In this document: piece by piece, positions 9,577 through 42,742 of the stretch
Position numbering within the stretch: position 1 is the first letter of the stretch
Layout: each line of letters begins with the position of its first letter
Assembly: GCA_964246315.1 (NCBI GenBank)
Contig: CAXTPT010000011.1
Span: 1,228 to 65,227 of the forward strand
Source: an uncultured Sphingomonadaceae bacterium
Lineage (GTDB): Bacteria; Pseudomonadota; Alphaproteobacteria; Sphingomonadales; Sphingomonadaceae
Length of the DNA stretch: 64,000 nucleotides
Direction of reading: 5' to 3'
Position numbers and translations under genes: made by a program
Notes under the pieces: model-generated
The model's input: only the letters and a program-made list of their open reading frames with translations
Database searches by the model: none
Told to the model about the DNA's origin: nothing

Positions 9577-9705
9577 GCCCTCCCTGCGCAGCGGGGAGGA
9601 AAATGCGAGCCGAGCGAGCGAGGGAGAGGTGAGTCGGGCCATCATCGCGAGACTCACCTCTCCCTGGCGCTGCGCGCCTGTCCCTCCCCGCTTCACAGGG
9701 AGGGC
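9577..9705. repeat. CIR/RIME-like intergenic miniature repeat (copy 1)
   Basis: 10-bp terminal IR GCCCTCCCTG/CAGGGAGGGC, terminal hairpins, perfect 15-bp central IR (9621-9635/9651-9665) with paired GANTC sites. Confidence 0.8.
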
Positions 9706-9709
9706 AAAC

Positions 9710-10354
9710 TTATTCGTCGCCCGAGGGGGCTTCGGGTGCCGCTTCTGCAGCAGCATCTTCCTCATTGTCGCCTTCGCTCGACTTGAGCGCCGACGGGGCG
9801 ACGATCGTGGCGATGGTGAAATCGCGGTCCTCGATCGCCGAGACCACGCCGCCCGGCAGCGTCACCGCCGAGATGTGGATCGAGTCGCCGACTTCATAGC
9901 CGGTCAGGTCGATGCGGATCTCGCCCGGGATTTCCGCCGCGTCGCAGGTCAGTTCGAGCTCGTGGCGGACGATGTTGAGCACGCCGCCACGCTTGAGACC
10001 CGGCGAGGCTTCCTCGTTATCGAAATGCACCGGCACCGCGACGGTGATCTTGGCGTGTTCCGAGATGCGCAGGAAATCCACGTGCAACGGACGGTCCGTG
10101 ACGGGGTGGAAGGCAACGTCCTTGGGCAGCGTGCGGACAGTGCCGCCGCCGACCCCGACCATCACCACCGAATTCATGAAATGGCCCGTGTGCAGCGCCT
10201 TCATCAGCGCCTTTTCCTCGACGTGAATCGACTGCGGGTCTTCGTTATTGCCGTAGATTACGCACGGCACGCGGCCTTCGCGACGCAGGGCACGGGAGGC
10301 TCCCTTGCCTGCCCGTTCGCGCGCCTCGGCCGACAGCGTCAGCTGATCGCTCAT
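9710..10354 (-). CDS. rplY: 50S ribosomal protein L25/general stress protein Ctc
   Basis: [36 protein letters not shown]. Confidence 0.97.
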
Positions 10355-10492
10355 GTTGCTAACTCCAAGTTGCTAACCGCACGCCTCCAGGGATGACCAT
10401 GCGGTGGGCGCGCCTGTAGCGAGGGGGGCGCGAAAAGGCAAATCGGAGCTCTTAAGGTAACAAAGGTAACGGCACGTTTTTTGCGAAACGCG

Positions 10493-10711
10493 CTATTTTC
10501 CGCGGCCGGTTTCCTCCTGCAGGGCGTCGATCCGCTTCGACGCTTCGGCCTTGGTCAGGCCATCGTCAAACTCGGCGTGCGCCTCTTCGGACAGGGTCTT
10601 GAGATAGGACGCCTGGGCGCCGGTCATCGGCTCGTCGCCGGTGGTCCAGTCATCGGGGTCCTTTTCGGCATTGCCGGTCGGGTGATCTTTGGGATTTTCG
10701 GTGGTGCTCAT
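10493..10711 (-). CDS. DUF3072 domain protein
   Basis: KDPDDWTTGDEPMTGAQASYLKTLSEEA..LTKAEASKRIDAL. Confidence 0.9.
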   Translation of the reverse strand: MSTTENPKDHPTGNAEKDPDDWTTGDEPMTGAQASYLKTLSEEAHAEFDDGLTKAEASKRIDALQEETGRGK

Positions 10712-10781
10712 GTGCGGGATAACGCCCATGTTCTCATATTGTTCAATAAAAATTCAGTTCGCATTATTTCCTAGCCGGCCC

Positions 10782-10885
10782 CGTCACCCCGGACTTGATC
10801 CGAGGTCCATCTCGCCGAGTTTGGTCAAGCCACCGCATGGGCGCCGACCGCCGCACGGTGGACCCCGGATCAAGTCCGGGGTGAC
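10782..10885. repeat. CGTC-type REP doublet (GTCACCCCGGACTTGATCCG class)
   Basis: 27-bp inverted arms 10783-10809/10859-10885 with one mismatch. Confidence 0.85.
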
Positions 10886-10908
10886 AACTTCACTTATGAC
10901 AGCTGGTT

Positions 10909-12009
10909 TCAGATCGGCACGTATTGGTGGCCCAGCGCCTCGGCGACGGCCTGGTGGCGGATCGTGCCGCCCATCACGTTGAGGCCGTTGGCGAGGTGCG
11001 GATCGGCGCGCATCGCGGCTTCGGCGCCGAGATTGGCGAGGCGCAGCGCGAAGGGCAAGGTCGCATTGTTGAGCGCAAAAGCCGAAGTCCGCGCCACCGC
11101 GCCGGGCATGTTGGCGACGCAATAATGGATCACGCCGTCGACCTCGAACACCGGGTCCTCGTGCGTCGTCGCATGGCTGGTTTCGAAGCAGCCGCCCTGA
11201 TCGATGGCAATGTCGACCAGCACCGAGCCGCGCTTCATCGTCCGAACCATCTCACGCGTGACCAGCTTGGGCGCCGCCGCGCCGGGGACGAGCACCGCGC
11301 CGATGACCAGATGCGCGTTCCTGACCGCCGCGGCGATCGCCGCGGTCGAGGCATATTGCGTCTTGATCTGGCTGGAAAAGAACATGTCGAGCTCGGCGAG
11401 GCGGTCGTTCGAGATGTCGTAGATCGTCACATCGGCGCGCATGCCGACCGCCATCTGCGCCGCGTTGACCCCCGAGACGCCGCCGCCGAGGATCGCGACC
11501 TTGGCGGGCGCCACGCCGGGGACGCCACCGAGCAGGACGCCGCGGCCGCCCTGTTCCTTTTCGAGATAATGCGCGCCGACCTGCACCGACATGCGGCCGG
11601 CGACTTCGCTCATCGGCTTGAGCAGCGGCAGCGCGCCGGTGCGCGAGGTGACGGTCTCGTAAGCGATGCAGGTCGCGCCTGACGCCATCAGCCCCTTGGC
11701 CTGTTCGGGATCGGGCGCAAGGTGGAGATAGGTGAACAGCAAGTGGCGCGGCTCGAGCAGGGCGATCTCGCTCGCCTGCGGCTCCTTGACCTTCACGATC
11801 ATGTCGCTGTCGCGGAACACCGCGGGCGCATCGGGCAAAATCGTCGCGCCGACCGCACGATAATCGTCATCGGCGAAATCGATGCCGAGACCAGCGCCCG
11901 TCTGAATATTGACGGCATGGCCGGCAGCGGTGAGCTCCGCGACCGATCCGGGCGTCAGGCCGACGCGATATTCGTGATTCTTGATTTCCTTGGGGACCCC
12001 GACGCGCAT
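10909..12009 (-). CDS. ald: Alanine dehydrogenase
   Basis: MRVGVPKEIKNHEYRVGLTP, VKVKEP, PMSEVAGR, GGGVSG, DQGGCFETS, ANMPGAV. Confidence 0.97.
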   Translation of the reverse strand: MRVGVPKEIKNHEYRVGLTPGSVAELTAAGHAVNIQTGAGLGIDFADDDYRAVGATILPDAPAVFRDSDMIVKVKEPQASEIALLEPRHLLFTYLHLAPDPEQAKGLMASGATCIAYETVTSRTGALPLLKPMSEVAGRMSVQVGAHYLEKEQGGRGVLLGGVPGVAPAKVAILGGGVSGVNAAQMAVGMRADVTIYDISNDRLAELDMFFSSQIKTQYASTAAIAAAVRNAHLVIGAVLVPGAAAPKLVTREMVRTMKRGSVLVDIAIDQGGCFETSHATTHEDPVFEVDGVIHYCVANMPGAVARTSAFALNNATLPFALRLANLGAEAAMRADPHLANGLNVMGGTIRHQAVAEALGHQYVPI

Positions 12010-12153
12010 GGCGCTCTCCTGAACGATGAATGCGCGTGCCCAATAGCGAGCCTGCATCCTTCTGTCTCGATTGCGCGTTGCTAGGGGCGGTGCTACCGGC
12101 CCGCGGCTTCGCGCGGAGTCGCGAGCGGAACGAAAGGCCGGGTTCGTACCCAA

Positions 12154-14073
12154 ATGGCAGACGCCGAATCCGTGGCACCACCAGTCCCGCACAGCGAGGA
12201 AGAGTCGCACCCGCACATCCAGGGCAGCCTCGGCAAGCTGGCGCTCGGCGCCGTCGGCGTGTGCTATGGCGATATCGGCACGAGCCCGCTTTACGCGATG
12301 AAGGAGGTGTTCGTCGGGCACCACCCGCTCGACCGTGACCCATTGCATATTTTCGGTGTGCTGAGCCTGATGTTCTGGTCGCTGCTGATCGTCGTCAGCA
12401 TCAAATATATCGGCATCATCCTGCGCGCGGACAATAAGGGCGAAGGCGGCAGCCTGGCGCTGCTGGCACTGATCCAGCGGCGCACCGGCGGCGGCCGCTG
12501 GTCGCACGGGCTGGTGATGCTCGGCGTGCTGGCGACCGCGCTGTTCTTTGGCGATTGCATGATCACGCCGGCGATCTCGGTGCTGTCGGCGGTCGAAGGC
12601 CTGGTCGTCGTCGAAGCGGGATTCGCCCCGTTCGTGTTGCCGGTCGCGGTGGTCATCCTGATCGGCCTATTCATCGTGCAATCGCGCGGTACCGACACGA
12701 TCGGCAAGTTCTTCGGGCCGATCATGACCGTGTATTTCCTGGTGCTCGCGCTGCTGGGGATCATGAGCATCGTTCGCGCGCCGGAAATCCTCGGCGCGGT
12801 CAATCCCGTCTGGGCGGCGCGCTTCGTGATGCACGATCCCAAGCTGGCGTTTCTTGCGCTGGGATCGATCGTGCTGGCGCTGACCGGCGCCGAGGCGCTG
12901 TACGCCGATATGGGCCATTTTGGCCGCCGCCCGATCCAGCAAGCCTGGGTATGGCTGGTGTTCCCCGCGCTGCTGCTCAATTATGCCGGGCAGGCCGCGC
13001 TGCTGATCCACACGCCGAGCGCCGCCGAAAATCCGTTCTTCCTGATGGCCAGCGAGGATTTCCGCCTGCCGCTGGTGATCCTGGCGACGATCGCGACGGT
13101 GATCGCCAGCCAGGCGGTGATCACCGGCGCGTTTTCGGTGATCCAGCAAGGTGTGCAACTGGGGCTGATGCCACGGTTCAAGATCGAGCATACCAGCGCA
13201 TCGGCGCACGGGCAGATTTACGTGCCGACGGTCAACTGGGCGCTGATGGTGATGGTCATGCTGCTGGTGCTGGCGTTCCGCGAGTCCTCGGCGCTGGCCG
13301 CGGCTTACGGCATCGCGGTGACCGGCACGATGTTCATCACCACCTGCATGATGACGGTGCTGGTGTTCCGCGTGTGGAAATGGCCGACCTGGGTGGCGGT
13401 GCCGATGTTCACCGTCTTCTTCACGATCGACGCGCTCTATTTCGCATCGAACCTGACCAAGGTGCCCGATGGCGGCTGGTTTCCGCTGCTGATCGGGGCG
13501 ATCGCTTTCACGCTGCTGACGACCTGGGCCAAGGGCCGCCAGCTGATGATCGCGCGGATGCGCGAGGCGGCGATGCCGCTCAAGGTCTTCGTCAAATCCG
13601 CCGCGCAGTCCGCCAGCCGCGTCCCCGGCACCGCGGTGTTCATGACCTCGACCCCCGACGGGGTGCCGCACGCGCTGCTGCACAATCTCAAGCACAATAA
13701 GGTGCTGCACGAGCGCGTCATCCTGCTAACCGTCAAGATCAAGGACGTGCCGGTGGTGCAGGACGACCAGACGCATGGGTTGGAACCGCTCGGCGAAGGG
13801 TTCTTCAGACTGATCTTGCACTACGGCTTCATGCAGGAACCCGACGTCCCCGCCGCGCTGTCACGCGTCACCGGGTGCGGCGAAAAGTTCAAGATGATGG
13901 ACACCAGCTTCTTCCTCGCGCGGCAGACGCTGCTCGCCTCCAGCCGCCCCGGCATGGCGATCTGGCGCGAGAAGCTGTTCGCGTGGATGCTGCGCAACGC
14001 GGAAAGCGCGATGGAATTCTTCCGCCTGCCGACTAACCGGGTGGTGGAATTGGGCTCGCAGGTCGAGATTTAG
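12154..14073 (+). CDS. kup: Potassium transporter Kup
   Basis: [44 protein letters not shown]. Confidence 0.97.
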
Positions 14074-14104
14074 GCGCGCAGCGGAAAACTGCTATTCCTG
14101 CAGG

Positions 14105-14133
14105 TTGTATTCCATTATGGAATATTCTATAAT
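14105..14133 (+). promoter_or_regulatory. Sigma70 promoter with overlapping palindromic operator
   Basis: TTGTAT-N17-TATAAT; perfect IR TATTCCAT-T-ATGGAATA at 14108-14124. Confidence 0.8.
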
Positions 14134-14236
14134 TGTCGGGCCGGCGGTTCAAGCCGGTCTCAGGAAAGGCACGGGCAATGGAGCAAGGCAACAACATGGT
14201 GATTAATCCGCCACAAAACTTGCGAAGGAAACAAAG

Positions 14237-14533
14237 ATGGGAGCGGAAAATTTTCAGGTTCTGATCGAACTTGGTTTTTTTGGACGGCTTCAAAAATGGG
14301 ACGACGACAGCCGGATCGAAGTTGATGTTTTGCAGTCGCTGCTGCGGGAATATGGCGCCGATTGCCTCAAGGATTTGAGGTCGATCTGCACGATTGCGGC
14401 GGAGATACCGCATCCCGATGGCAAGCCGCATTGGACCGAGTTTTGGTACAAGTTGCGCGGCTCATGGACATTTTTCGTTCTGGAAGAGCGGCTGTCAGGC
14501 GTGTTTATCTTGCATGACCGCGCCCGGCGCTAG
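14237..14533 (+). CDS. Putative RelE/HigB-like toxin (divergent)
   Basis: 98 aa, AAGGA SD, lower GC, directly upstream of an XRE gene; weak resemblance to HigB N-terminus (W....R.E...L..LLREYG). Confidence 0.5.
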   Translation: MGAENFQVLIELGFFGRLQKWDDDSRIEVDVLQSLLREYGADCLKDLRSICTIAAEIPHPDGKPHWTEFWYKLRGSWTFFVLEERLSGVFILHDRARR

Positions 14534-14551
14534 CCAGTTTGGGATTATGGA

Positions 14552-14860
14552 ATGACGGAAGAAATCAACGACGCGGTTGAATGGCGGCCGCAGTGGACAG
14601 GCGAAAAAAAAGAGCAGTTCGATCGGCTTCGTGCCCAGTATGCGCGGGAAATCTCGGTTCTTCGCGATGTGCGCAAGGCATTGGCGCTAACGCAGGTCGA
14701 AGCCGCGGAGATACTGGACATGACGCAGTCCAATGTGTCGAAGCTGGAGCGGGGCGATCCAACGCTGTCGACGATCCAGCGCATGGTTTCGGCAAAGGGG
14801 GGTAAGGTGACACTTCAAGTCACTTCAGCGGACGGAAAAGAGCTGGCGATCGCCTTGTAG
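14552..14860 (+). CDS. XRE/HigA-like HTH antitoxin
   Basis: LRDVRKALALTQVEAAEILDMTQSNVSKLERG..LSTIQRMV.AKGG. Confidence 0.85.
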   Translation: MTEEINDAVEWRPQWTGEKKEQFDRLRAQYAREISVLRDVRKALALTQVEAAEILDMTQSNVSKLERGDPTLSTIQRMVSAKGGKVTLQVTSADGKELAIAL

Positions 14861-14979
14861 TCAATTGCGAGCAGCACGACACGGGCGATCATTACCCGAA
14901 GCTAGCGGACGGTCTTCCAAAGACGATCAGGCGTCGATCAACGCGCCGTGATGATGAGGGCGAGGAGGCTGCGGGCAAT

Positions 14980-16488
14980 CTACCGATCCGCCGCAAGGCC
15001 TTTGGCGCGCTCCCGCGCGGCGCGGCGTTCGGCAACGAGCTGACTGGCGCGCGCCGGGTTCCAGGTCAGCCCCCCGGCAGCTCTGGCGTCGGCCGATATC
15101 AGCACGCCGGCCGGGGCCACGCGCGCGTCGCGGATCGCGGCGGCGATCAGATGTCCGTTGAACACGAACCCTTCGAACGGCTGTTGCTTGAGCCAGGCGT
15201 CGGCCTTGGTCAGACCCGCCTGGTAATCCCGGGCGAAATCGTAGCGGATCGACGCGGTGAGCTGATCGCGCAGGCTGGTCTGATTGACCGCCGCGACGAG
15301 CGCATTGAACACCGCGCTGTCGGTCTGGCCGACCAAGGTCAGGTCGCGCACCGACAGAACGCGGCCGGGAATGTCGAGCACCGGCGTGGCGACGAACCAT
15401 AATTGGCCCGCGGGGGCAACCAAGCCGCCGAACGCACCGAGTTCGACATCGAGGCCCACCGCCAGACGACCGCCGGTCGAGCCATAGATCGTCACCTTGC
15501 GCACCGTCGCATCGACGGTTTGGCCGTTCTTGAGCTTGAGGCGGCGCTTGCCCGGTCTGACCAGCGTATCGTTCGCCGCGCCTTCGAGCACGCCGTACGG
15601 CACGAACACCGGCACGTGCATGTTGATGCCCTGTTCGGCGAGCGGACCTTCCAGGCGCGGCAGCGGCGTGACCGGCGGATCGGCGGGCCGCTCACCGAAG
15701 ATCGTCTCCGTCTTGAGCCGCGCCGAGAGGTTGGCGGTGAGCAACCCGCCCGCGACGCGATAGCCGGCGAAGCCGATCGCCTGCGGGGTGAAGCGCGCCC
15801 AGATCAGCGGTTCGGATTTGACGCGTTCGGAACGAAAGCCCTTGGCCCAGATCGACGCCGCCTTGTCGCGCACCCCGGCCCGAGCCAGCCTGGCGGGGAG
15901 CCGGCGCTCGAGCTGGTTCAGAATCTCGCGGAGCTTGGGATCGACTTTGGACTGGAAAGTGATCCGCTGGCCGAGAAGGTCGATGCCGATCGGGTTGGTC
16001 CAGCGGTAATTGGCGTCGACCTGGGCCACCGGCGTCCAGTCCGGACGCAGGCCGAGGCGCAGGCGCGTGGTGACCATGACCGCGCCGGTCGCGGTCTCGC
16101 GCTTGATCAGCTTGCCGATGTTTTCGGCGCGGACCGTGGCGGACACGGGGATGGTCAGCGTGATCACCTCCCCCGCGCCGCTGAGGCCGATGGGACCGCG
16201 CGTGACTTGCCCCCGCAGACGGCAACTGATGTCGGGCAGCAGCTTCGACCTGGTCTTGATGCAGACGCGCGGCGGCTCATCGATGATCTGCAGCACGCGT
16301 GGCACGTCCTGCTCGATCGCGCGCTTGAGATCGGCGAGCGGCACCGCGATCGGCATCCGCACCGTCGAAGGCTGATCGGGCAAGGTCACTGGCGTGGCGA
16401 GATGCGGGGGCGCAGCCGGCGTGCCGTCGCGCGCGCCCTGGCAACCCGCGATCGGCAGGACAAGCAGGAGCGCTGAGGGCCTCAGCAT
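14980..16488 (-). CDS. DUF4403-like lipoprotein
   Basis: Lipobox IAGC; 502 aa; family recalled from overall pattern only. Confidence 0.6.
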   Translation of the reverse strand: MLRPSALLLVLPIAGCQGARDGTPAAPPHLATPVTLPDQPSTVRMPIAVPLADLKRAIEQDVPRVLQIIDEPPRVCIKTRSKLLPDISCRLRGQVTRGPIGLSGAGEVITLTIPVSATVRAENIGKLIKRETATGAVMVTTRLRLGLRPDWTPVAQVDANYRWTNPIGIDLLGQRITFQSKVDPKLREILNQLERRLPARLARAGVRDKAASIWAKGFRSERVKSEPLIWARFTPQAIGFAGYRVAGGLLTANLSARLKTETIFGERPADPPVTPLPRLEGPLAEQGINMHVPVFVPYGVLEGAANDTLVRPGKRRLKLKNGQTVDATVRKVTIYGSTGGRLAVGLDVELGAFGGLVAPAGQLWFVATPVLDIPGRVLSVRDLTLVGQTDSAVFNALVAAVNQTSLRDQLTASIRYDFARDYQAGLTKADAWLKQQPFEGFVFNGHLIAAAIRDARVAPAGVLISADARAAGGLTWNPARASQLVAERRAARERAKGLAADR

Positions 16489-32739: not shown

Positions 32740-32749
32740 AATTTACCGG

Positions 32750-33814: not shown

Positions 33815-34753
33815 TCAACCGATCAGGCCGAAGCACCACAGCAGGATCGATTTCTGCGCGTGCAGCCGGTTCTCCGCTTCGTCCCAAACCGCCGATTGCG
33901 GGCCGTCGATGACATCGGCGGTCATTTCCTCGCCGCGGTGGGCGGGGAGGCAATGCATGAAGGTGGCGCCGGGCTTGGCCTTGCTCAGCAGGCCCTTGTC
34001 GATCTGGAACGGCGCCAGCGCGGCGACGCGGGCCGCGGCATCGGCCTGGCCCATCGACACCCAGCAATCGGTGACCACGACGTCGGCGTCACCGGCGGCG
34101 CGCGCGGGATCGCGTTCGATGGTGATGCGGGCGTTGCTGTCGGCGAGGCGCTGATTGGCTTGCGTCACGAACGCCGGATCGGGGTCATAGCCTTCAGGGC
34201 AGGCCACCGAGACCGAGAAGCGCATCAGCCCCGCCGCCTCGATTAGCGAATTGACGACGTTGTTGCCATCGCCCGACCAGGCCCATTTGCTGCCCGGCAG
34301 CGCGATGCCGCGGTCGAGCGCGGTGAGCAGGTCGGCCATGATCTGGCAGGGATGCGAGCGGTCGCTGAGCCCGTTGATCACGGGCACGCTAGCATGATGC
34401 GCCATCTCCTCCAGCTTGGCCGGATCGTCGGTACGCAGCATGATCGCGTCGACATAGCGGCTGAGCACGCGCGCGGTGTCCGCGACCGTCTCGCCGCGGC
34501 CGAGCTGGGTCGAGCCGGCATCGAGGATCAGCGACGAGCCGCCCAGCTGCCGGATCGCCGCGTCGAAACTGGCGCGGGTGCGCGTCGAATTCTTTTCGAA
34601 CACCATCGCCAGCGTGTGCCCGGCGAGCGGCGCGTCGGCATCGGCCTTGCCTTTGGGCCAGCCCTGGCGCGCCGTCTTGCGGTCGAGCGCGTCGGCGAGG
34701 ATCGCCGCGACGCCATCGCCACCCGCGTCGGACAGGTCGAGGAAGTGTCTCAT
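33815..34753 (-). CDS. argF: Ornithine carbamoyltransferase
   Basis: [42 protein letters not shown]. Confidence 0.96.
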
Positions 34754-34757
34754 TCAG

Positions 34758-34881
34758 TTCCTCCCCGGAACGGGGAGAGGGACCAAGAAGTGGTGGAGAG
34801 GGCTCTCCGCATTTGGTGCGTTGCGCGCGGAAGACCCCCTGCGTCACGCTTCGCGTGCCACCTCCCCGTGCCGGGGAGGAA
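34758..34881. repeat. CIR/RIME-like intergenic miniature repeat (copy 2)
   Basis: Perfect 11-bp terminal IR TTCCTCCCCGG/CCGGGGAGGAA; fills the argD-argF gap. Confidence 0.8.
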
Positions 34882-34883
34882 TG

Positions 34884-36074
34884 TCATCGCGCCACCTCAA
34901 AACTCGCCGCCCCCGCGCTCAGCCGTTCGAGGCATTCGCCGATGTGCCGCTCCTCAATGATGAGCGGAGGCAGGACGCGGAACACGTTCTCCCCCGCCGC
35001 AACCGTCAGCAGCCCGTGATGGTCGCGCAAATGCGCCACGAAATCGCGCGACACCGCCGGTTCCTTCAGCTTGATGCCGAGCATCAGCCCTTTGCCGCGG
35101 ATTTCCTCGAACAAATGATCGTGGTTCGGGATCAGCTGTTCAAAGGCCTGCCGCAGCCGCTGCCCCATCCGTTCGACATGCAGCAGGAAATCGGGTTCGA
35201 GCATCACGTCGAGGACCGCCTGCCCCGCCGCCATCGCCAGCGGGTTGCCGCCATAGGTCGAGCCGTGCGTGCCGATGACCATGCCCTTGGCCGCTTCCTC
35301 GGTGGCGAGGCAGGCGCCAAGCGGGAAGCCGCCGCCTATGCCCTTGGCGACGGTCATGATGTCCGGCGTGATCCCGTAATGCTCATACGCCCACATCTTG
35401 CCGGTGCGGCCATAGCCGCACTGTATTTCGTCGAGGATCAGCAGCAGGCCACGCTCATCGCACGCCTGGCGCAGGCCGGTGATGAACTCGGGCGTGCCGG
35501 CAGTCATGCCGCCTTCGCCCTGCACCGTTTCGACAAGAAACCCCGCGGTTTCATCGTCGATCAGCGCCAGCGCGCCTTCAAGGTCGTTGAACCGCGCGTA
35601 ATCGAACCCGGGCAATAGCGGCTCGAACCCATCGCGCATCTTTACCTGGTCGGTCGCCGAAATCGCACCGAGCGAACGCCCGTGAAACGCGTTCTTGAAG
35701 GTGATCAGCTTGTAGCGTTCGGCATTGCCGTTGACGTCGTGATAGCGGCGCGCGGTCTTGATCGCGCATTCAATCGCCTCGACGCCCGAATTGGTGAAGA
35801 ACACCGTGTCGGCAAAGCTATTGTCGACGATCCGCTGCGCCAGCGCCTCCCCCTGCGGCGAGCCGTAGAGGTTGGAGACGTGCATCAGCGTCGCCGCCTG
35901 GTCGGCGATCGCCCTGGTCAGATGTGGGTGGCCGTGGCCGAGCGCGTTGACGGCGATCCCCGCAGCGAAATCAAGGTAGCGCTCGCCGCGCTCGCCATAA
36001 AGGTACACGCCCTCGCCTCGCACCGGCCGCACCCCGCACCGGGGATAGACGGGCATCAGCGGCGTGATCGTCAT
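34884..36074 (-). CDS. argD: Acetylornithine aminotransferase
   Basis: DFAAGIAVNALGH, FFTNSG.EA, FHGR, DEIQCG.GRTG, AKG.GGGFP, HGSTYGGNP; upstream of argF. Confidence 0.93.
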   Translation of the reverse strand: MTITPLMPVYPRCGVRPVRGEGVYLYGERGERYLDFAAGIAVNALGHGHPHLTRAIADQAATLMHVSNLYGSPQGEALAQRIVDNSFADTVFFTNSGVEAIECAIKTARRYHDVNGNAERYKLITFKNAFHGRSLGAISATDQVKMRDGFEPLLPGFDYARFNDLEGALALIDDETAGFLVETVQGEGGMTAGTPEFITGLRQACDERGLLLILDEIQCGYGRTGKMWAYEHYGITPDIMTVAKGIGGGFPLGACLATEEAAKGMVIGTHGSTYGGNPLAMAAGQAVLDVMLEPDFLLHVERMGQRLRQAFEQLIPNHDHLFEEIRGKGLMLGIKLKEPAVSRDFVAHLRDHHGLLTVAAGENVFRVLPPLIIEERHIGECLERLSAGAASFEVAR

Positions 36075-36094: not shown

Positions 36095-36119
36095 GAGGCG
36101 ACCCGTTGCGGGCCGCCTC
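36095..36119 (-). terminator. Intrinsic terminator
   Basis: Minus: GAGGCGGCCCG-CAA-CGGGTCGCCTC then TTTGCTTT. Confidence 0.7.
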
Positions 36120-36159
36120 GATGCGCCTTCCTTAATGGACCGGCGGGCGTCAGGTCAAT

Positions 36160-36600: not shown

Positions 36601-36680
36601 CGTCACCTCCATCTGGTTCGATGCCTGGATTATAGGTGATCCGACTTGCGTGCAGGCTGAACGCGCCTGTTATCGCGCGT

Positions 36681-37511
36681 TCAGTTCTTCAGCTTCCACC
36701 CGCTTTCGAGCAGCGCGTAACAGAGCGCCGCGAGCGCGATATCGATGCCGAGAATCACCAGGCCGCCGATCATTACCGGCGAGTCCGCCACGCCGATAAA
36801 GCCAAAGCGGAAGCCTGCGATGACATAGTGAAACGGATTCAGCCGGCTGAACATCTGGAACGCCGGGTGCAGGCGGTCGATGGCGTAGAACGTCCCGGAG
36901 AGCAGCGAGGCGGGCGCGATGACGAAATTGCTGATCGTGGCCGCATGATCGAATTTCTCGGCCCAGATCGAGGTCAGTACGCCCATCAGCGCGAGCATCA
37001 CCGAGCCGAGCAGCCCGAACCACAAAACCGCGCCGAGATGCGCGATGGTTACGTGGACGCCGGGCCAGAACAGCATTGCGAGATAGATTGCCGCTCCGAC
37101 GAAGATCGCGCGGGTGACGGCGCCGCCGACCATGGCCCCCAGCAACTCGCCGCTGGACAGCGGCGGCATCAGGTAATCGACGATCGTCCCCTGGATCTTG
37201 CCCACGAGCAGCGAAAAGCTCGAATTGGCAAATGCGTTCTGCATCATCCCCATGACGATCAGGCCGGGGGCGATGAAATCGGCAAACGCGACCTGCTGCC
37301 CGCCGACCGAAACCGGCGTGCGCCCGCCGGTCGCCACGGTGAAGATGACCAGGAACAGCAGCGTGGTGACCGCGGGTGCCCAGACGGTCTGGAGCTGAAC
37401 CTTGAAAAAGCGGCGCACTTCCTTCACATAAAGCGTCTTCAACCCGCCCCAATTGATGTTGCGGATGATCGGCTCGCCCGGCTCATGCCGGATCGCGGTG
37501 CTGTCATTCAT
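36681..37511 (-). CDS. ABC-2 type transporter permease (YadH-like)
   Basis: KEVRRF..V..QTV.AP, FIAPGL..M, P...LSG.FY, NPF.Y.I.GFR. Confidence 0.9.
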   Translation of the reverse strand: MNDSTAIRHEPGEPIIRNINWGGLKTLYVKEVRRFFKVQLQTVWAPAVTTLLFLVIFTVATGGRTPVSVGGQQVAFADFIAPGLIVMGMMQNAFANSSFSLLVGKIQGTIVDYLMPPLSSGELLGAMVGGAVTRAIFVGAAIYLAMLFWPGVHVTIAHLGAVLWFGLLGSVMLALMGVLTSIWAEKFDHAATISNFVIAPASLLSGTFYAIDRLHPAFQMFSRLNPFHYVIAGFRFGFIGVADSPVMIGGLVILGIDIALAALCYALLESGWKLKN

Positions 37512-37554
37512 GCCCGTGCGTTAGGAGCGGCGACACGACCGAGCAAGGATTACG

Positions 37555-38238
37555 ATGGCCTGGACCGACGAGCGGATCGATAAGCTCAAGACCATGTGGG
37601 AAAGCGGCAAGACCGCGAGCGTCATCGCCGAGGAACTTGGCGGGGTCAGCCGCAATGCGGTGATCGGCAAGGCGCACCGTCTGGGCCTGCAATCGCGCCC
37701 GTCGCCGGTGACCGCGAAGGACGAAGCTCCCGGCAAGCCGGCATCCGCGCCCAAGGCCGTGGTGGCCGAACCTGCCACACCGCCTGCCACGACCAAGACT
37801 ACGCCGGCGGCTCCCGCTGCAGCCCCCACCCCGGTGGTTGAGCGCATGGCGCCGCCGCCGCCCAACCCCTTTCCGCCGCACGTACCGAGCGGCCCGACCG
37901 GCGCGCAATTACGTTCGATCGGCCCGGGCGGCTTCCTGCGCCAGGGTCCGGGGGACCAAGCCCCGCCATCGCAACCCGCACCGCCGCGCCGCCTCGTTCC
38001 CGCACGTCCTTCACCCGAGATCGCCGGCAAGACGACCCTGCTGGAACTGAGCGACAAGGTCTGCAAATGGCCGATGGGACATCCGGGCGAGCCCGACTTT
38101 CACTTCTGCGGCGACACGGTGAACCCGGGATTTCCCTATTGCGTACAGCATTGCGGCCAGGCTTATCAGGCGCAAATGCCACGCCGCGACCGCCGCATGC
38201 CCCCGCCACTGCCGTTCGGCGGGCCGCGGGTCCGATAA
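37555..38238 (+). CDS. gcrA: GcrA cell-cycle regulator
   Basis: MAWTDERI..LK.MW..G.TAS.IA..LGGVSRNAVIGKAHRLGL, CKWPMG.PG, FCG, PYC..H. Confidence 0.95.
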   Translation: MAWTDERIDKLKTMWESGKTASVIAEELGGVSRNAVIGKAHRLGLQSRPSPVTAKDEAPGKPASAPKAVVAEPATPPATTKTTPAAPAAAPTPVVERMAPPPPNPFPPHVPSGPTGAQLRSIGPGGFLRQGPGDQAPPSQPAPPRRLVPARPSPEIAGKTTLLELSDKVCKWPMGHPGEPDFHFCGDTVNPGFPYCVQHCGQAYQAQMPRRDRRMPPPLPFGGPRVR

Positions 38239-38261
38239 AGAACCGCGGCCTTGCAAATAAA

Positions 38262-38293
38262 AAAGGGGAGGCTGCTCGCGCGGCCTCCCCTTT
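38262..38293. terminator. Bidirectional intrinsic terminator
   Basis: AAAGGGGAGGC..GCCTCCCCTTT between convergent genes, A-tract before and T-tract after. Confidence 0.8.
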
Positions 38294-38307
38294 CGTATAT
38301 CGGCTGT

Positions 38308-39132
38308 TTAGAAGCGGAACGCCGCCGTGACGCGCATCGTGTTCCAACGGAAGTTGGAGTCACTGCGGGCGATGGTCGTTCCACCGCCACCGAGAATGAA
38401 CGGGTTTGTCGCTGGTGCGGTACCGGCACCAACGGCTACACGCGACTTGTCATCACGCAAGCTCGTGTAAAGGTATTCGAGGCCGATCGAGAATGCGCCG
38501 ATACGCTGCTCGACACCGCCGCCGGCGCTGTAACCCCAGGCATCGTGATCGCCATTGGTCGTAAACGAGTTGGCGGTGTTCGAGGTCACGAAACGATTGC
38601 GCAGCTTGCCGTAGGCCACGCCCCCGGTACCGTAGAACAGGGTCGTGCCCTGTGGCGTGAAACCGATGCGGCCACGCGCGCCCGCATCATATCTCAGGCT
38701 TCGGGTCAGCGTATAGCTCGCCGGGGTGGTGCTGAAGCTTGATGTTGAGTCGTTGATGCGGGTCTTGCCGAAATCACCGACGAAACCGAAGACCAGGTGT
38801 TCGCCGACCATGCTGTCGCCGCCGATGCGCACCTTGTACTCGATGCCATCCTTGTCGTTCCGGCAACTGTTGTTCGCGCTGCTGGTTGCCGACCCGTTAC
38901 AGGAGCCAGGCGAAAAAGCATTGGCGCCCGCTGCGGTCGGCAGCGATGTACCGAAATTCCTGCCGTTGCGGCTGAACAATAGCGTCGATCCCTGGTCATT
39001 GGGCTGAACGGCGCCGCCGAAAGAGCCGCCAACGTAAAAGCCATCATAGCCAGCAGGCACATCGCCATCCTGGGCAAGAGCCGGCGAAGCAATGGCAAGC
39101 GCTGCCGCGCCAGCAAATAGCAAATTCCTCAT
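38308..39132 (-). CDS. Outer membrane beta-barrel protein (Omp25/RopB-like)
   Basis: Signal peptide, GFYVGGSFG, YGTGG.AYG, G...GGG.E, LEYLYT, C-terminal Phe. Confidence 0.88.
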   Translation of the reverse strand: MRNLLFAGAAALAIASPALAQDGDVPAGYDGFYVGGSFGGAVQPNDQGSTLLFSRNGRNFGTSLPTAAGANAFSPGSCNGSATSSANNSCRNDKDGIEYKVRIGGDSMVGEHLVFGFVGDFGKTRINDSTSSFSTTPASYTLTRSLRYDAGARGRIGFTPQGTTLFYGTGGVAYGKLRNRFVTSNTANSFTTNGDHDAWGYSAGGGVEQRIGAFSIGLEYLYTSLRDDKSRVAVGAGTAPATNPFILGGGGTTIARSDSNFRWNTMRVTAAFRF

Positions 39133-39270
39133 TATAGTCCTCCGTGTTTGGTCGGTCTGAGAAACGAAATGCCGACTGCTTCGGATGCATAGCCGCGAAA
39201 TAACGGCATCAGCTGTGGCATTTATATCACGCGCTTGCCGAGCGGACCCGTGCCTTCCAAAAGGGCGGGC

Positions 39271-41253
39271 ATGAGCGACTTATTTGACGCCGCGCCGGGG
39301 GCTGCGAGCGGTGGTGATTATGATGCCTCCTCAATTGAGGTGCTCGAGGGGCTCGAACCCGTCCGGCGGCGGCCGGGCATGTATATCGGCGGCACCGACG
39401 AGCGCGCGCTGCACCATCTTGCCGCCGAAGTGCTCGACAATGCAATGGACGAAGCGGTGGCGGGCCATGCGACGCGGATCGAAGTGTCGCTGGAGGCGGG
39501 CAACCGCCTGACGGTAATCGACAATGGCCGCGGCATCCCGGTCGATCCGCATCCCAAATTTCCCGGCAAATCGGCACTGGAGGTGATCCTGTCGACGCTC
39601 CATTCGGGCGGCAAGTTCGACGGCAAGGCCTATGCCACGAGCGGAGGGCTGCACGGCGTTGGCGTTAGCGTGGTCAATGCACTGTCGTCCAAGACCATCG
39701 TCGAAGTGGCGCGCAACAAGGAGGTGTCTCGCCAGCGTTTCTCGCGCGGCGTGACGCTGGGGCCGCTCGAAAAATTGGGGCCGACGCAGAACCGGCGAGG
39801 CACCAGCGTCGCGTTCACGCCCGACGAGGAGATTTTCGGCGAGCTGAGTTTCAAGCCCGCGCGGCTGTACCGTCTGGCCCGGTCGAAAGCCTACCTCTTC
39901 GCCGGCGTCGAAATCCGCTGGAAGTGCGATCCGGCGTTGATCGCTGACGACACCCCGGCCGAGGCAATCTTCCAGTTTCCCGGCGGCCTTGCCGATCATC
40001 TCCGCGAGCAGGTCGGCGCGCGCGAGTGCGCGACCGCCGAATTCTTCACGGGGCGGCAGGATTTTCCCGGCGAGCAGCAAGGCCGCGTCGAATGGGCGGT
40101 GGCCTGGCCGCTATGGAGCGACGGCAGCTTCAGCTGGTATTGCAACACCATCCCGACGCCCGATGGCGGCACGCACGAGGCGGGGCTGCGCGCCGCTTTG
40201 GTCAAAGGCTTGCGCGCCTTCGGCCAATTGGTCGGCGCGAAGAAATCGAACGATTTACAGCCCGAGGACGTCATGGCGCCCGCCGAGCTGATGCTCAGCG
40301 TGTTCATCCGCGATCCGCAATTCCAGTCGCAGACCAAGGACCGCCTCACCTCGCCCGAGGCGGCGCGGCTGGTCGAGAACGCGGTGCGCGACCATTTCGA
40401 CCATTTTCTCACCGACAATATGGACCGCGGTCGCGCGCTGCTGGCCTATGCCACCGACCGGATGGACGAGCGCCTCGCCCGTCGCGCCGAGCGCGAGGTC
40501 AAGCGCAAGACCGCGACTAGCGCGCGCAAGCTGCGCCTGCCCGGCAAGCTGACCGATTGCTCGGCGGACGACCCCAAGGGCACCGAATTGTTCATCGTCG
40601 AAGGCGATTCCGCAGGCGGTAGCGCCAAGCAGGCGCGCGACCGCAAGACGCAGGCGATCCTGCCGATCCGCGGCAAGATCCTCAACGTCGCCAGCGCAAC
40701 TTCTGAAAAAATCCGGGCGAACAGCGAGATCGCCGACCTGATCCTGGCGCTCGGCTGCGGCGTGCGCGACAAATGTGATGCCGATGCGCTGCGCTACGAA
40801 CGCGTCATTATCATGACCGACGCGGACGTCGATGGCGCTCATATCGCGACGCTGCTGATGACCCTGTTCTTCCAGGAGATGCCCGAGATCGTCCGGCGCG
40901 GGCACGTCTATCTCGCCCAGCCGCCGCTCTACCGCATCACCGCCGGTGCTAAGTCGCTTTACGCGCGCGACGATGCGCAGCTGGAGGAGATCAAGGCTGG
41001 CGCATTCAAAGGCCGCAACGTCGAAGTGTCGCGCTTCAAGGGACTGGGCGAAATGAACCCGTCACAGCTGCGCGAAACGACGATGGACCCGAAGACCCGC
41101 ACGATGATCCGCGTCACGCTGCCCCAGGAATATGAAGACCGCGCCGTCGTCCGCGACCTGGTCGAGCGCCTGATGGGCAAGCACCCCGAGCACCGCTTCA
41201 ACTTCATTCAGGAAAATGCGGCGCGGGTGGACGAGGAGGCGATTGACGCTTGA
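39271..41253 (+). CDS. parE: DNA topoisomerase IV subunit B
   Basis: EGLEPVRRRPGMYIG, SGGLHGVG.SVVNALS, EGDSAGGS, RGKILNV, DADVDG.HI, RFKGLGEM; 660 aa, lacks the GyrB insert. Confidence 0.93.
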   Translation: MSDLFDAAPGAASGGDYDASSIEVLEGLEPVRRRPGMYIGGTDERALHHLAAEVLDNAMDEAVAGHATRIEVSLEAGNRLTVIDNGRGIPVDPHPKFPGKSALEVILSTLHSGGKFDGKAYATSGGLHGVGVSVVNALSSKTIVEVARNKEVSRQRFSRGVTLGPLEKLGPTQNRRGTSVAFTPDEEIFGELSFKPARLYRLARSKAYLFAGVEIRWKCDPALIADDTPAEAIFQFPGGLADHLREQVGARECATAEFFTGRQDFPGEQQGRVEWAVAWPLWSDGSFSWYCNTIPTPDGGTHEAGLRAALVKGLRAFGQLVGAKKSNDLQPEDVMAPAELMLSVFIRDPQFQSQTKDRLTSPEAARLVENAVRDHFDHFLTDNMDRGRALLAYATDRMDERLARRAEREVKRKTATSARKLRLPGKLTDCSADDPKGTELFIVEGDSAGGSAKQARDRKTQAILPIRGKILNVASATSEKIRANSEIADLILALGCGVRDKCDADALRYERVIIMTDADVDGAHIATLLMTLFFQEMPEIVRRGHVYLAQPPLYRITAGAKSLYARDDAQLEEIKAGAFKGRNVEVSRFKGLGEMNPSQLRETTMDPKTRTMIRVTLPQEYEDRAVVRDLVERLMGKHPEHRFNFIQENAARVDEEAIDA

Positions 41254-41350
41254 TGGTACGCCGATTGCCGAGCAATCGCCAAGACGGCGAATACCGGACG
41301 GCCTAGCGCAGCACAGATTTGACGAAGCGGGGTTAAACCCCGCCCCGGCA

Positions 41351-42094
41351 TCAGTCCGAGAGAGCCGCAACCAACGCTCTGACCTTTTTCTGCCGCCACT
41401 GCGGTAGCGGGGCAACGAGCCAGTAGCCGCGCGGGTCTTCGACGGTGGCGCCGGCATCCGCGATCAAGGCTGGGACGAGCGCTTGGCCAAGGCCCGCCTG
41501 CGCCGCCTCTAACGCCAGTCCGGCATCGGCCACCGTGAGCGTCGCGCCGTCCATCTCCGGGCCGCCGCGCCAGGCAATTGGGGCCCCTTCACCGACGCTG
41601 GCGAAGCCGCGCGGACCGATGGGAACACCTTCGTGCGCGCCCGGCGAGCTGTCGAAGCAGATGGCGAGATCGAGATTGGCTTCGGTGAAGTCGAGGCCGT
41701 CTTCGCCGGCGATCAACTGCAGGCGCAGTTCGGGGTCGCTGCGGCGGTACTGGGCAAGCCTGGGCGTCAGCCAGCGCGCGGTGAGGTCGCGCGGCGCGGC
41801 GATGGTCAGCGACTGGCTCGATTGGCCGACCTGCATCGCGCGAACGGCTTCCTCGAAATTGAGGAAGCCCTTGCGCAGCTCGGCCAGCCCCGCCTCGCCT
41901 TCGGGGGTGAGTTCGAGGCCCTTGGGCGTGCGGCGAAACAGGACGAGGCCGAGCGTATCTTCGAGCGCGCGGATCTGTTGCCCAACCGCGGCGGGGGTCA
42001 CTGCCAGCTCGTCCGCGGCGCGGGTGAACGACAGATGCCGCGCGGCGGCGTCGAATACGCGCAGGCCGTTGAGGGGGAGATGGGTGCGCTTCAC
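41351..42094 (-). CDS. LysR family regulator (GcvA-like, short effector domain)
   Basis: LPLNGLRVFDAAARHLSFT.AA.EL.VT..AV..QIR.LE; 247 aa. Confidence 0.88.
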   Translation of the reverse strand: MKRTHLPLNGLRVFDAAARHLSFTRAADELAVTPAAVGQQIRALEDTLGLVLFRRTPKGLELTPEGEAGLAELRKGFLNFEEAVRAMQVGQSSQSLTIAAPRDLTARWLTPRLAQYRRSDPELRLQLIAGEDGLDFTEANLDLAICFDSSPGAHEGVPIGPRGFASVGEGAPIAWRGGPEMDGATLTVADAGLALEAAQAGLGQALVPALIADAGATVEDPRGYWLVAPLPQWRQKKVRALVAALSD

Positions 42095-42112
42095 TGCTGC
42101 CCCCTAAGCCGA

Positions 42113-42208
42113 TTTCGTCATTCCCGCGAAGGCGGGAATCCATCTGCGCTCCTGCCCGCACTTGGTGAAGACGAGAGATGAATTCCCGCCTTCGCGGGAA
42201 TGACGAAA
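42113..42208. repeat. CGTC-type REP doublet
   Basis: TTTCGTCATTCCCGCGAAGGCGGGAAT ... ATTCCCGCCTTCGCGGGAATGACGAAA. Confidence 0.88.
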
Positions 42209-42231
42209 CTTGGTTTTGGAAATGGACACGA

Positions 42232-42630
42232 TCACTGAGCCGTCACCGGGGCGGTCAAGGCGAATTTGGGAATGGCGATCTCGAAGCTCGATCCATCCTC
42301 GCCGACCATGATGTAAGCGCCCTGCATCGAGCCCGATGGCGTGTTCAACGGGCAGCCCGAGACATAGTCATAGCTTTCGCCAGGCGCGATGACTGGCTGT
42401 TCGCCGATCACGCCTTCGCCCTCGACGACGTGCCGCTGACCGCGACCGTCGGCGATGATCCAGCGGCGGCTCATCAGCTGCACCGCCATGTCCGAGCCAT
42501 TTTCGATGCGGATATGATAGGCCCAGAACCACTGGCCTTTGTCGCGTGTGGACTGTTCGGGGAGAAAGCTGACCGACACGCGCACGGTGATATTCTGCGT
42601 CGTTTCCGCATAAGGGAACAATGCGTTCAT
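42232..42630 (-). CDS. apaG: ApaG protein
   Basis: WAY.IRIEN, VQL.SRRW.I.D, V.GEGV.GEQP, Y.SG.PL.TPSG.M.G. Confidence 0.95.
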   Translation of the reverse strand: MNALFPYAETTQNITVRVSVSFLPEQSTRDKGQWFWAYHIRIENGSDMAVQLMSRRWIIADGRGQRHVVEGEGVIGEQPVIAPGESYDYVSGCPLNTPSGSMQGAYIMVGEDGSSFEIAIPKFALTAPVTAQ

Positions 42631-42633
42631 CAT

Positions 42634-42742
42634 ATCCTCCCCGGGACGGGGAGGTGGCGCGCAGCGCCGGAGGGGATTTGCCCCTTACACATGCCCCCTC
42701 CGTCAGCGCTTCGCGCCGCCACCTCCCCGTACCGGGGAGGAT
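42634..42742. repeat. CIR/RIME-like intergenic miniature repeat (copy 3)
   Basis: Perfect 11-bp terminal IR ATCCTCCCCGG/CCGGGGAGGAT. Confidence 0.8.

Follow-up and report, generated by a model that had tools for sequence, protein, structure and literature searches.

Judged by analogy, the closest precedent for the repeats described here is likely to be the mycobacterial MIRUs (Supply et al. 1997). According to passages in PMC12548453 and PMC3184786, these are short repeats between operon genes, with an internal open reading frame (ORF) that overlaps the flanking genes with -4 nt coupling, and this overlap is thought to permit insertion with minimal effect on expression. In the alphaproteobacteria, RPEs, the Rickettsia palindromic elements (Ogata et al. 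2000), are described as palindromes of ~105 to 146 bp that lie in frame in protein-coding genes and are translated (passages in PMC10969869, PMC2229807, and PMC3184786), and CIRs, the CcrM-associated intergenic repeats of Caulobacter (Chen and Shapiro 2003), as highly structured, GANTC-containing intergenic elements of ~110 bp, laid out, in the account excerpted from PMC2229807, as two arms and a linker, with no ORF. Finally, the Neisseria REP2 and Borrelia inverted-repeat sequences are reported, in a passage of PMC3184786, to lie immediately upstream of genes at the 5' ends of transcription units and to bring not only a ribosome-binding site but also a promoter and a start codon.

Three palindromic repeats between co-oriented genes

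The window, i.e., the whole stretch of DNA that was analyzed, comprises 64,000 nucleotides from an uncultured Sphingomonadaceae bacterium. An initial annotation had placed three CIR-like repeats in this window, each in the gap of a co-oriented gene pair, and this arrangement was borne out: all genes concerned lie on the minus strand and their identities were confirmed with Pfam.

8995..9570, minus strand: pth, peptidyl-tRNA hydrolase (Pfam; start compared with orthologues in relatives)
9579..9704, minus strand: repeat 1, subfamily B, CIR-like, between the rplY stop and the pth start; near-perfect palindrome
9710..10354, minus strand: rplY, ribosomal protein L25/TL5 (Pfam)
33815..34753, minus strand: argF, ornithine carbamoyltransferase (OTCase) (Pfam; start compared with relatives)
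34760..34879, minus strand: repeat 2, subfamily A, in the argD-argF gap; palindrome with termini CCTCCCCGG and CGGGGAGG
34884..36074, minus strand: argD-like class III aminotransferase (Pfam)
42232..42633, minus strand: apaG (DUF525) (Pfam; the start codon of the closest relative is the equivalent of ATG 42630)
42636..42740, minus strand: repeat 3, subfamily A, between the metZ-like gene and apaG; palindrome
42755..43999, minus strand: metZ-like Cys/Met-metabolism PLP enzyme (Pfam)

The start codons of pth, argF, and apaG are consistent with those of their orthologues in relatives. For repeat 1, nhmmer reported a locus (C11:10801-10938) that corresponds to window positions 9574 to 9711. While all three are indeed palindromic junction repeats, they do not belong to one family: GANTC occurs in the rplY-pth copy only, and the argD-argF and metZ-apaG copies differ from it in their termini. 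The two GANTC sites of the rplY-pth copy lie in its central stem (9631-9635 and 9651-9655), even though this motif is four-fold depleted across the window, and their presence varies among the other subfamily-B copies.

Across the genome, nhmmer, with matches on both strands, detected ~45 repeat loci, 33 of which are ≥100 bp; the full-length copies are near-perfect palindromes of 104 to 157 bp and fall into at least three subfamilies. With gene calls beyond the window taken from our own crude caller, 23 of the 33 full-length copies were located in co-directional gaps, 6 in convergent gaps, and 4 within genes, and none in divergent gaps, which make up 71,343 of the 253,011 intergenic bases. One of the four within-gene copies lies in frame in ileS, where query residues 494 to 539 remained unmatched and the solved IleRS chain passes from 415 to 418; two more are found in glyS and one in a Suv3-like helicase gene. 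Such in-frame copies in conserved genes recall RPEs, but the excerpted RPE descriptions make no mention of stop-start bridging, Shine-Dalgarno (SD)-like ends, or an associated nuclease. Compared by description, the repeats share with CIRs the alphaproteobacterial host, the size, the intergenic position (29/33), and, in the rplY-pth copy, GANTC; unlike CIRs, they fold into one long hairpin each, and the argD-argF and metZ-apaG copies are devoid of GANTC and spanned by ORFs. They are also palindromic, transcribed, and situated after gene ends, with none in divergent gaps of this genome, as are REP/BIME and ERIC elements. However, REPs are ~35 bp long and depend on RAYT (Y1) transposases, for which our genome yielded no match.

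The minimum-energy folds of the whole elements were -80 and -100 kcal/mol for the argD-argF and metZ-apaG copies (z-scores, -4.3 and -8.6) and -106.5 kcal/mol for the rplY-pth copy (z-score, -8.1). The initial annotation had the terminal GGAGG of each repeat paired in the element's own end hairpin. Such local hairpins can form (-13.4, -15.8, and -14.8 kcal/mol for the three window repeats), but in the whole-element optimum, GGAGG pairs with CCUCC of the opposite end instead; in either predicted fold, the motif is sequestered. The mRNA sense strand was the more stable one in only 11 of 28 copies (P = 0.13), and G-U pair counts were not biased between sense and antisense, so the hairpin was not taken as evidence for a regulatory RNA or for selection at the RNA level. 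In addition, Rfam reported only a tRNA at gathering thresholds and, at permissive E-values, only microRNA-precursor hairpins far below threshold, and hence no known RNA family.

Outward-facing GGAGG as a candidate Shine-Dalgarno sequence

The palindrome presents an outward GGAGG at each end, so that a gene starting past either end gains a candidate SD sequence 1 to 10 nucleotides upstream. In the window, three such motifs face a start codon:

9579..9583, minus strand: outward-facing GGAGG in repeat 1; the pth ATG (9570) follows after 8 nt
34760..34764, minus strand: outward-facing GGAGG in repeat 2; the argF ATG (34753) follows after 6 nt
42636..42640, minus strand: outward-facing GGAGG in repeat 3; ATG 42630 follows after 5 nt and the alternative ATG 42633 after 2 nt

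The distances of 8, 6, and 5 nucleotides given in the initial annotation could thus be reproduced, as could its observation that the repeat end is the sole SD before each start; the stretch between repeat and start contains no other fitting purine motif. Past the GGAGG of repeat 1, a TAG (9576..9574) is followed by TTG-ATG in the pth frame. The positional bias extends beyond the window: among the repeat ends with a recognizable terminal motif in the same genome, 15 of the 21 facing a start are followed by a called start within 1 to 10 nucleotides, against a background in which only 4 to 8% of called starts have GGAGG within 20 nucleotides upstream. Similarly, an SD core is present at 13 of 15 filled rplY-pth junctions, representing ~13 insert types, but at only 2 of 10 empty ones, with mean anti-SD duplex energies of -10.5 and -4.9 kcal/mol, respectively. 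Unlike the Neisseria REP2 and Borrelia sequences, the repeats reported here lie inside operons, after a stop codon. Exact GGAGG was equally common at both kinds of tight ends: 28 of the 33 that face a start have it, as do 39 of the 49 that face a stop (P = 0.77).

Orthologous loci lacking the element reveal what the insertions displaced. The repeat was absent from all 26 argD-argF and all 24 metZ-apaG loci of relatives; argD and argF overlap (NTGA or TGATG) in 18 of 20 same-genus loci, as judged from junctions read by eye, and the metZ and apaG genes overlap in 17 of 24 relatives, while the rplY-pth spacer measures just 3 to 6 nucleotides in 10 of 24. Because the downstream start in these relatives overlaps the upstream stop or follows it within 3 to 6 nucleotides, the old ribosome-binding context must have been displaced by the insert. 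ATGA or TGA(TG), which matches the ancestral junction, flanks the argD-argF and metZ-apaG repeats on both sides. Many unrelated insert families occupy the same junctions (rplY-pth and pdxJ-acpS).

Candidate relay ORFs across the repeats

The initial annotation had missed a further feature of the argD-argF and metZ-apaG copies: both are spanned by an ORF that leads from the upstream stop codon to the downstream start codon and will be referred to as a relay ORF.

34750..34887, minus strand: argD-argF relay ORF of 45 codons; ATG on the argD stop (ATGA), TGA on the argF ATG (ATGA)
42630..42755, minus strand: metZ-apaG relay ORF of 41 codons; ATG on the metZ-like stop (TGATG), TGA on the first apaG ATG (ATGATGA)
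9574..9861, minus strand: stop-to-stop open frame of 95 codons across repeat 1, in the pth frame; ends with TAG 3 nt before TTG ATG

In both relay ORFs the frame is open across the entire repeat, and a ribosome on either of these candidate ORFs would melt the repeat hairpin. In the rplY-pth copy, a start codon is lacking in the vicinity of the rplY stop, and there is hence no canonical relay ORF. A mini-ORF that would begin at the apical-loop ATG ATG of this copy is speculative, the feature being missing in the other subfamily-B copies examined.

When 28 tight co-directional loci were considered (16 from this genome and 12 from five relatives, related species being nonindependent samples), a full relay ORF was found at 16 and not at the other 12. 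Under a frameshift null, with 1 or 2 nucleotides deleted inside the repeat, 3.6 would be expected, and none of 200,000 simulations reached 16; under a more conservative null that concerns phase only, 12.0 of 21 would be expected in frame, whereas 18 were observed (P = 0.0023), and 16 of those 18 were open. At an independent junction, pdxJ-acpS, a relay ORF spans the insert in six of seven filled junctions, from at least five insert families (0.96 expected; none of 500,000 simulations reached 6). Four of these six inserts carry no SD core, and to make the survival of an insertion conditional on a recreated SD, as proposed earlier, is therefore too strong. Not all copies conform. Full relay ORFs were found in none of five subfamily-B copies, the pth copy included, with termini assigned by the analyst; several relay ORFs begin with GTG or TTG and lack an SD altogether; and at filled rplY-pth junctions only 2 of 15 have a relay ORF (0.68 expected under the null), for which reason we do not claim the relay model for pth. 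Stop codons in the repeats are modestly depleted (161, against 186.7 in dinucleotide shuffles; z = -2.4), with 3.89 of six frames open compared with 3.64 in the shuffles, so that the open frames are largely compositional; this depletion is not strong evidence for a stop-free sequence by "design."

The similarity to MIRUs is most evident here: at argD-argF and metZ-apaG, as at 16 of the 28 tight loci but not at rplY-pth, start and stop of the ORF in the repeat overlap the flanking genes. The repeats differ from MIRUs in phylum and, as far as a comparison by description allows, seemingly in sequence, and they are long near-perfect palindromes with GGAGG ends, linked to DUF559, that also lie in frame within genes and of which no tandem arrays were seen.

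Taken together, we consider it probable, if by no means certain, that the three elements are copies of selfish near-perfect palindromes of 105 to 145 bp, miniatures of the DUF559 elements described below, that are tolerated at stop-start junctions because they are "translation-transparent" by virtue of their GGAGG ends and, in subfamily A, their relay ORFs. Such repeats would settle directly after stop codons, mostly in operon junctions in which stop and start overlap or lie a few nucleotides apart and in which the downstream gene would normally have no SD of its own and rely on the ribosome finishing the upstream gene; being translation-transparent, copies would then persist at these tight junctions. 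In subfamily A, a ribosome finishing argD or metZ would reinitiate on the relay ORF, which runs from the upstream stop (ATGA, TGATG) through the open repeat to the downstream start (ATGA), and its translation would unwind the -80 to -100 kcal/mol hairpin. This ribosome would terminate at the start of the next gene, with GGAGG in its mRNA channel, and reinitiate there. For the rplY-pth copy, a member of subfamily B without a relay ORF, only the supply of an SD can be argued.

Another explanation, though in our judgment an unlikely one, is that SD supply alone accounts for the pattern: incidental GGAGG ends of selfish palindromes would allow ordinary de novo initiation whenever the hairpin breathes or is processed, relay ORFs would simply result from the duplication of NTGA junctions and from a GC-rich sequence with few stops, and insertions at tight junctions would survive because the repeat end stands in for the ribosome-binding context that was displaced. 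The rplY-pth junctions, with their SD enrichment and scarcity of relay ORFs, fit this explanation well, as do the lack of canonical relay starts in subfamily B and the weak stop codon depletion. However, the excess of relay ORFs holds under both null models and recurs at pdxJ-acpS, largely on inserts without an SD core, and an SD buried in a local hairpin of -13 to -16 kcal/mol or a full one of -80 to -106 kcal/mol would be expected to initiate poorly on its own.

Still less probable is the absence of any translational role, with the repeats acting in RNA stability or processing, or as DNA-level structures, as REP and ERIC elements might, and proximity to starts merely following from insertion after stop codons in a gene-dense genome. 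The REP/BIME-like distribution (always after a gene end, never divergent in this genome), the strand symmetry of the palindrome, and the equal tightness of ends that face a stop and ends that face a start all agree with this; it leaves unexplained, however, both the in-frame relay excess and why an SD is enriched where rplY-pth junctions are filled, and argF and pth, deprived of their coupled context, would still need to be translated. A search of public RNA runs for this stretch gave a best run with ≤0.08 of the sampled words.

DUF559 nuclease genes between palindromic arms

All five DUF559 endonuclease genes of the genome are nested between palindromic arms, which belong to three repeat subfamilies at C36, C66, and C80 and to a fourth family at C14 and C25. 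It is on the basis of this nesting that the repeats look like miniature derivatives of such elements, which measure ~470 bp and encode a Vsr-like PD-(D/E)XK endonuclease. Three of the nuclease ORFs have the relay layout themselves or are fused in frame, and they end on the start of the next gene. DUF559 is a nuclease fold and, to our knowledge, no known transposase. Since the family also includes a chromosomal Vsr-like protein in Caulobacter (a passage in PMC12907096), its role in mobility is that of a candidate only. A RAYT or IS200-type transposase was rejected as the mobilizer: PF01797 (RAYT, Y1) had no match in this 99.95% complete genome, and the same search was positive in 6 of 14 control genomes. 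Among the full-text matches listed, as judged by title and start of abstract, none linked DUF559 to repeats, and a literature search combining MITEs, translational coupling, and Shine-Dalgarno sequences found no such system.

It is conceivable, although we would not put it at even odds, that DUF559 genes in palindromic arms represent a class of parasites of operon junctions that has so far gone undescribed. With neither a promoter nor an SD of its own, the nuclease would be expressed through coupling or in-frame fusion and would return the ribosome to the next host start; nuclease-less miniatures would keep the relay layout, on which unrelated hairpin families in the genus would have converged at "landing-pad" junctions.

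The suggestion in the initial annotation that the repeats were domesticated, with the host retaining them as switches whose hairpin gates translation initiation of pth, argF, and apaG, is very improbable: although the structure that sequesters the SD is stable and statistically unusual and the placement before starts is nonrandom, GGAGG is equally conserved at ends facing no start, neither folding nor G-U pairing favors the sense strand, same-genus relatives have argD-argF and metZ-apaG without an insert, further copies lie between convergent genes and within genes, many unrelated insert families target the same junctions, and the DUF559 parent elements indicate selfish spread. The interpretation given in that annotation is partly supported.

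If the translation-transparent reading is correct, it would show how selfish DNA can settle where a compact genome is most sensitive, in overlapping stop-start junctions and even in essential genes (ileS), and leave expression intact. The MIRU idea, so far one of mycobacteria, would then apply to alphaproteobacteria and to more than one repeat family, and DUF559, a nuclease that is very common yet classed as a "domain of unknown function," would be tied to a mobile lifestyle. Annotation pipelines would read these junctions as long untranslated hairpin spacers, whereas their translation may in fact be continuous. In its layout, the relay also resembles the short delivery ORFs that, according to a passage in PMC12548453, are used in biotechnology against repressive RNA structure.

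A candidate target-site duplication of the kind made by IS families did not hold up consistently: its length varies across loci, and none is visible at pdxJ-acpS. Terminal inverted repeats, a MITE trait, are present, the entire element being palindromic.

Repeats at the rplY-pth, argD-argF and metZ-apaG junctions

The identities of the six genes flanking the three window repeats (rplY and pth, an argD-like aminotransferase gene and argF, and a gene for a metZ-like PLP enzyme and apaG) were confirmed with Pfam; all six lie on the minus strand, and at each junction the stop-to-start gap consists almost entirely of repeat. The initial annotation had placed a repeat-borne GGAGG just upstream of pth, argF and apaG, an observation confirmed from the window sequence:

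rplY-pth, minus strand: last GGAGG of the repeat 8 nt before the pth ATG at 9570
argD-argF, minus strand: last GGAGG of the repeat 6 nt before the argF ATG at 34753
metZ-apaG, minus strand: last GGAGG of the repeat 5 nt before the apaG ATG at 42630

An alternative apaG ATG at 42633 lies just 2 nt from the GGAGG, and the apaG start in the closest relative aligns with 42630. The accompanying claim, that each GGAGG is sequestered in a hairpin at the repeat's own end, was examined by folding: short end hairpins pairing the GGAGG do fold (-13.4, -15.8 and -14.8 kcal/mol), but each entire repeat folds as one long hairpin (-80, -100 and -106 kcal/mol, the last for rplY-pth; z of -4.3, -8.6 and -8.1), in which the terminal GGAGG pairs with a CCUCC at the opposite end. 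The GGAGG is sequestered in both folds.

A family of palindromes with three subfamilies

An iterated nhmmer search of the genome (2.56 Mb, 107 contigs, 66% G+C), seeded with the three window copies, gave 81 hits that merge into 45 loci, of which 33 reach 100 bp or more. Nearly all matched on both strands, and the repeats are therefore palindromes. Three subfamilies were told apart by their termini:

Subfamily A: termini CCTCCCCGG and CGGGGAGG; includes the argD-argF and metZ-apaG copies
Subfamily B: termini CCCTCCCTGCG and AGCGGGGAGGG; includes the rplY-pth copy
Subfamily C: termini CCCTCTCCC and GGGAGAGGG

The copy number is a minimum, since several copies sit at contig ends (C17:1-44, C35:26145-26307, C91:2-57 and C93:3-100), which indicates that the repeats break the assembly. 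Two copies stand in tandem on C35, and on C91 a second pdxJ-like stretch (69-686), 77% identical to the copy on contig C66, adjoins the repeat end at the contig edge. No Rfam family matched the repeats; the sole match in the window at the gathering threshold was a tRNA gene (4033-4103, minus strand).

The rplY-pth copy contains two GANTC sites and the other two window copies none. Across the window GANTC occurs 78 times, a four-fold depletion relative to the 297 sites predicted by shuffling (100 of 100 shuffles were higher), as expected for a CcrM-bearing alphaproteobacterium. In the table of a 2008 review, CIR is entered as a repeat of about 110 bp that has GANTC and lacks an ORF (PMC2229807).

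Placement relative to genes

Outside the window, genes were called with a simple, crude codon-usage caller (2378 genes, 89.6% of bases), and copies were classed by their gene context.

Gene context of the repeats (33 full-length copies in this genome; 29 distinct copies in five relatives)
Co-directional genes: 23/33; 18/29
Convergent genes: 6/33; 3/29
Inside gene calls: 4/33; 5/29
Divergent genes: 0/33; 1/29
Locus edge: no figure; 2/29

Divergent gaps make up 71,343 of the 253,011 intergenic bases and 363 of the 2271 junctions in this genome, so that the chance of finding zero divergent copies is about 7e-5 when reckoned by bases and 0.006 when reckoned by junctions. In all intergenic copies, one end or both lie within a few nucleotides of a stop codon. 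The initial annotation had proposed testing for a genome-wide bias in GGAGG-to-start spacing, and such a bias is present: a called start follows 1 to 10 nt past the terminal motif at 15 of the 21 start-facing ends with a recognizable motif here (11 of 22 start-facing ends in the relatives), against a background of 4 to 8% of called starts with GGAGG within 20 nt; about 31% have any 4-mer Shine-Dalgarno (SD) core.

Empty junctions in relatives

The argD-argF repeat was found in none of the 26 relatives' loci carrying both genes, and in 18 of 20 same-genus loci, by reading of the junction sequences, the argD stop codon overlaps the argF start codon (as NTGA or TGATG). Likewise, none of 24 relatives has the metZ-apaG repeat; the two genes overlap in 17 and are 14 nt apart in 5, and 2 cases are ambiguous. 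In this genome, an NTGA-type junction is found on both flanks of each of these two inserts.

Inserts recur at the rplY-pth junction, which serves as a landing pad: a spacer of 3 to 6 nt separates the two genes in 10 of 24 relatives, and inserts of 38 to 284 nt, falling into about 13 kinds, fill the junction in the other 14 and in this genome. In different species of the genus this junction is occupied by hairpin or palindromic inserts that are unrelated to one another (loci L086-L110), as is pdxJ-acpS (L116-L135; at least 5 kinds), where the relatives otherwise have NTGA overlaps or short spacers. Some pdxJ-acpS inserts end in a hairpin and T-run immediately 5' of the start codon. At the closest empty rplY-pth junction (L091), rplY ends with the codons CGCGGGAGGGGCC, a sequence that resembles the 3' half of a 38-nt hairpin at the same junction in L089; rplY may here have taken the remains of a repeat into its coding end.

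Relay ORFs across the repeats

A 45-codon ORF, with its ATG overlapping the argD TGA and its TGA overlapping the argF ATG, runs across the argD-argF repeat; the metZ-apaG repeat is crossed by a 41-codon ORF from TGATG to ATGATGA. We called such a frame a full relay ORF if it starts at -10 to +6 of the upstream stop, stays open through the repeat and stops at -6 to +8 of the downstream start. Full relay ORFs occur at 16 of 28 tight co-directional loci (7/16 in this genome, 9/12 in relatives); a null in which 1 or 2 nt are deleted at any point of the central region gave 3.6 expected, and 16 was reached in 0 of 200,000 simulations. Under a more conservative, phase-only null, restricted to loci where a start and a stop are both close by, 18 of 21 were in frame when 12.0 would be expected (P = 0.0023); of these 18, 16 were open. 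By terminus-based subfamily, relay ORFs in this genome number 6/8 in A, 0/5 in B and 1/3 in C. There is no conserved relay peptide, because copies differ in the frame used, all three being represented.

The pdxJ-acpS junction provided an independent test. Its 7 filled examples hold at least five insert families, and in 6 of them a full relay ORF connects the stop of pdxJ with the start of acpS (0.96 expected; 6 reached in 0 of 500,000 simulations); 4 of these 6 relay-bearing inserts have no SD core. MIRU ORFs, too, are described as overlapping adjacent genes in a 2011 review (PMC3184786).

The rplY-pth junction is distinguished by the SD. A relay ORF was found in just 2 of its 15 filled junctions (null, 0.68), and the window copy has merely an open frame, in the pth frame, that ends at a TAG just before TTG ATG. 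An SD core lies within -20 to -3 in 13 of the 15 filled junctions, always supplied by the insert end (mean anti-SD duplex, -10.5 kcal/mol), versus 2 of 10 empty ones (mean, -4.9 kcal/mol). SD supply by the repeat, as originally proposed, is therefore the best available account for pth. For argF and apaG, SD and relay ORF are both present.

DUF559 genes and the persistence of the repeats

This genome contains five genes of the Vsr-like endonuclease family DUF559, all nested between palindromic repeat arms, which on C36, C66 and C80 belong to subfamilies A, B and C (Pfam E values of the enclosed DUF559 ORFs, 7e-22 to 4e-41). The nuclease ORFs on these three contigs are themselves relay ORFs or, on C80, an in-frame fusion; the other two genes, on C14 and C25, lie within a different family of arms:

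C36:10519-10988, from an ATGA overlapping the upstream stop to TAA-GTG where the next gene starts
C66:3481-4031, from an ATG 11 nt before a pdxJ-like stop to a TGA on an acpS-like ATG
C80:936-1402, fused in frame with a murB-like ORF (896 codons open), with its stop on a ddl-like ATG
C14:44119-44421, flanked by arms of a fourth family of palindromes
C25:3495-3797, between arms of the same fourth family

No Y1 or RAYT transposase was found in this genome. The table of a PD-(D/E)XK survey places DUF559 in one group with Vsr and with the structure of a homing endonuclease from a group I intron (PMC3424549), and a Caulobacter DUF559 protein is described as behaving as a Vsr-like enzyme (PMC12907096); among the DUF559 papers listed by a full-text search, none tied the family to repeats in its title or abstract opening.

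The initial annotation had inferred that the repeats either were domesticated as translation-initiation modules or survive only where they recreate an SD. Exact GGAGG is kept equally at start-facing (28/33) and stop-facing (39/49) tight ends (P = 0.77). Folding is not favored in the mRNA sense: the sense strand had the lower energy in 11 of 28 copies (P = 0.13), and G-U pairs numbered 59 in sense and 74 in antisense. Stop trinucleotides are only modestly depleted, at 161 versus 186.7 for shuffled sequence (z = -2.4). Both the palindrome and the GGAGG at its ends thus belong to the element itself and do not represent adaptations at individual genes. Of the earlier interpretation, SD supply stands, but the interpretation as a whole missed the relay ORFs and was too adaptive. 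Our best reading is that these are selfish, DUF559-derived palindromes that would persist in operon junctions because translation is preserved: at argD-argF and metZ-apaG a relay ORF and an SD would act together, and at rplY-pth the SD would presumably act alone. That the relay ORFs are translated and that ribosomes use the GGAGG is inferred from sequence, as is the way the elements move.

Copies within genes

Four copies in this genome lie in frame within long ORFs:

C9:56205-56336 (locus L111), ileS (isoleucyl-tRNA synthetase): one subfamily-B repeat, a 44-codon insertion
C63:7130-8539 (L112), glyS (glycyl-tRNA synthetase beta subunit): two repeats, amino acids 283-320 and 407-450
C15:15809-15918 (L113), Suv3-like helicase gene: one repeat

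RPEs are likewise described as inserting in frame into genes (PMC10969869). About 46 residues of the ileS product (494-539) have no counterpart in solved IleRS structures, where the chain goes from 415 to 418. The glyS gene on C63 also has a half repeat at its start.
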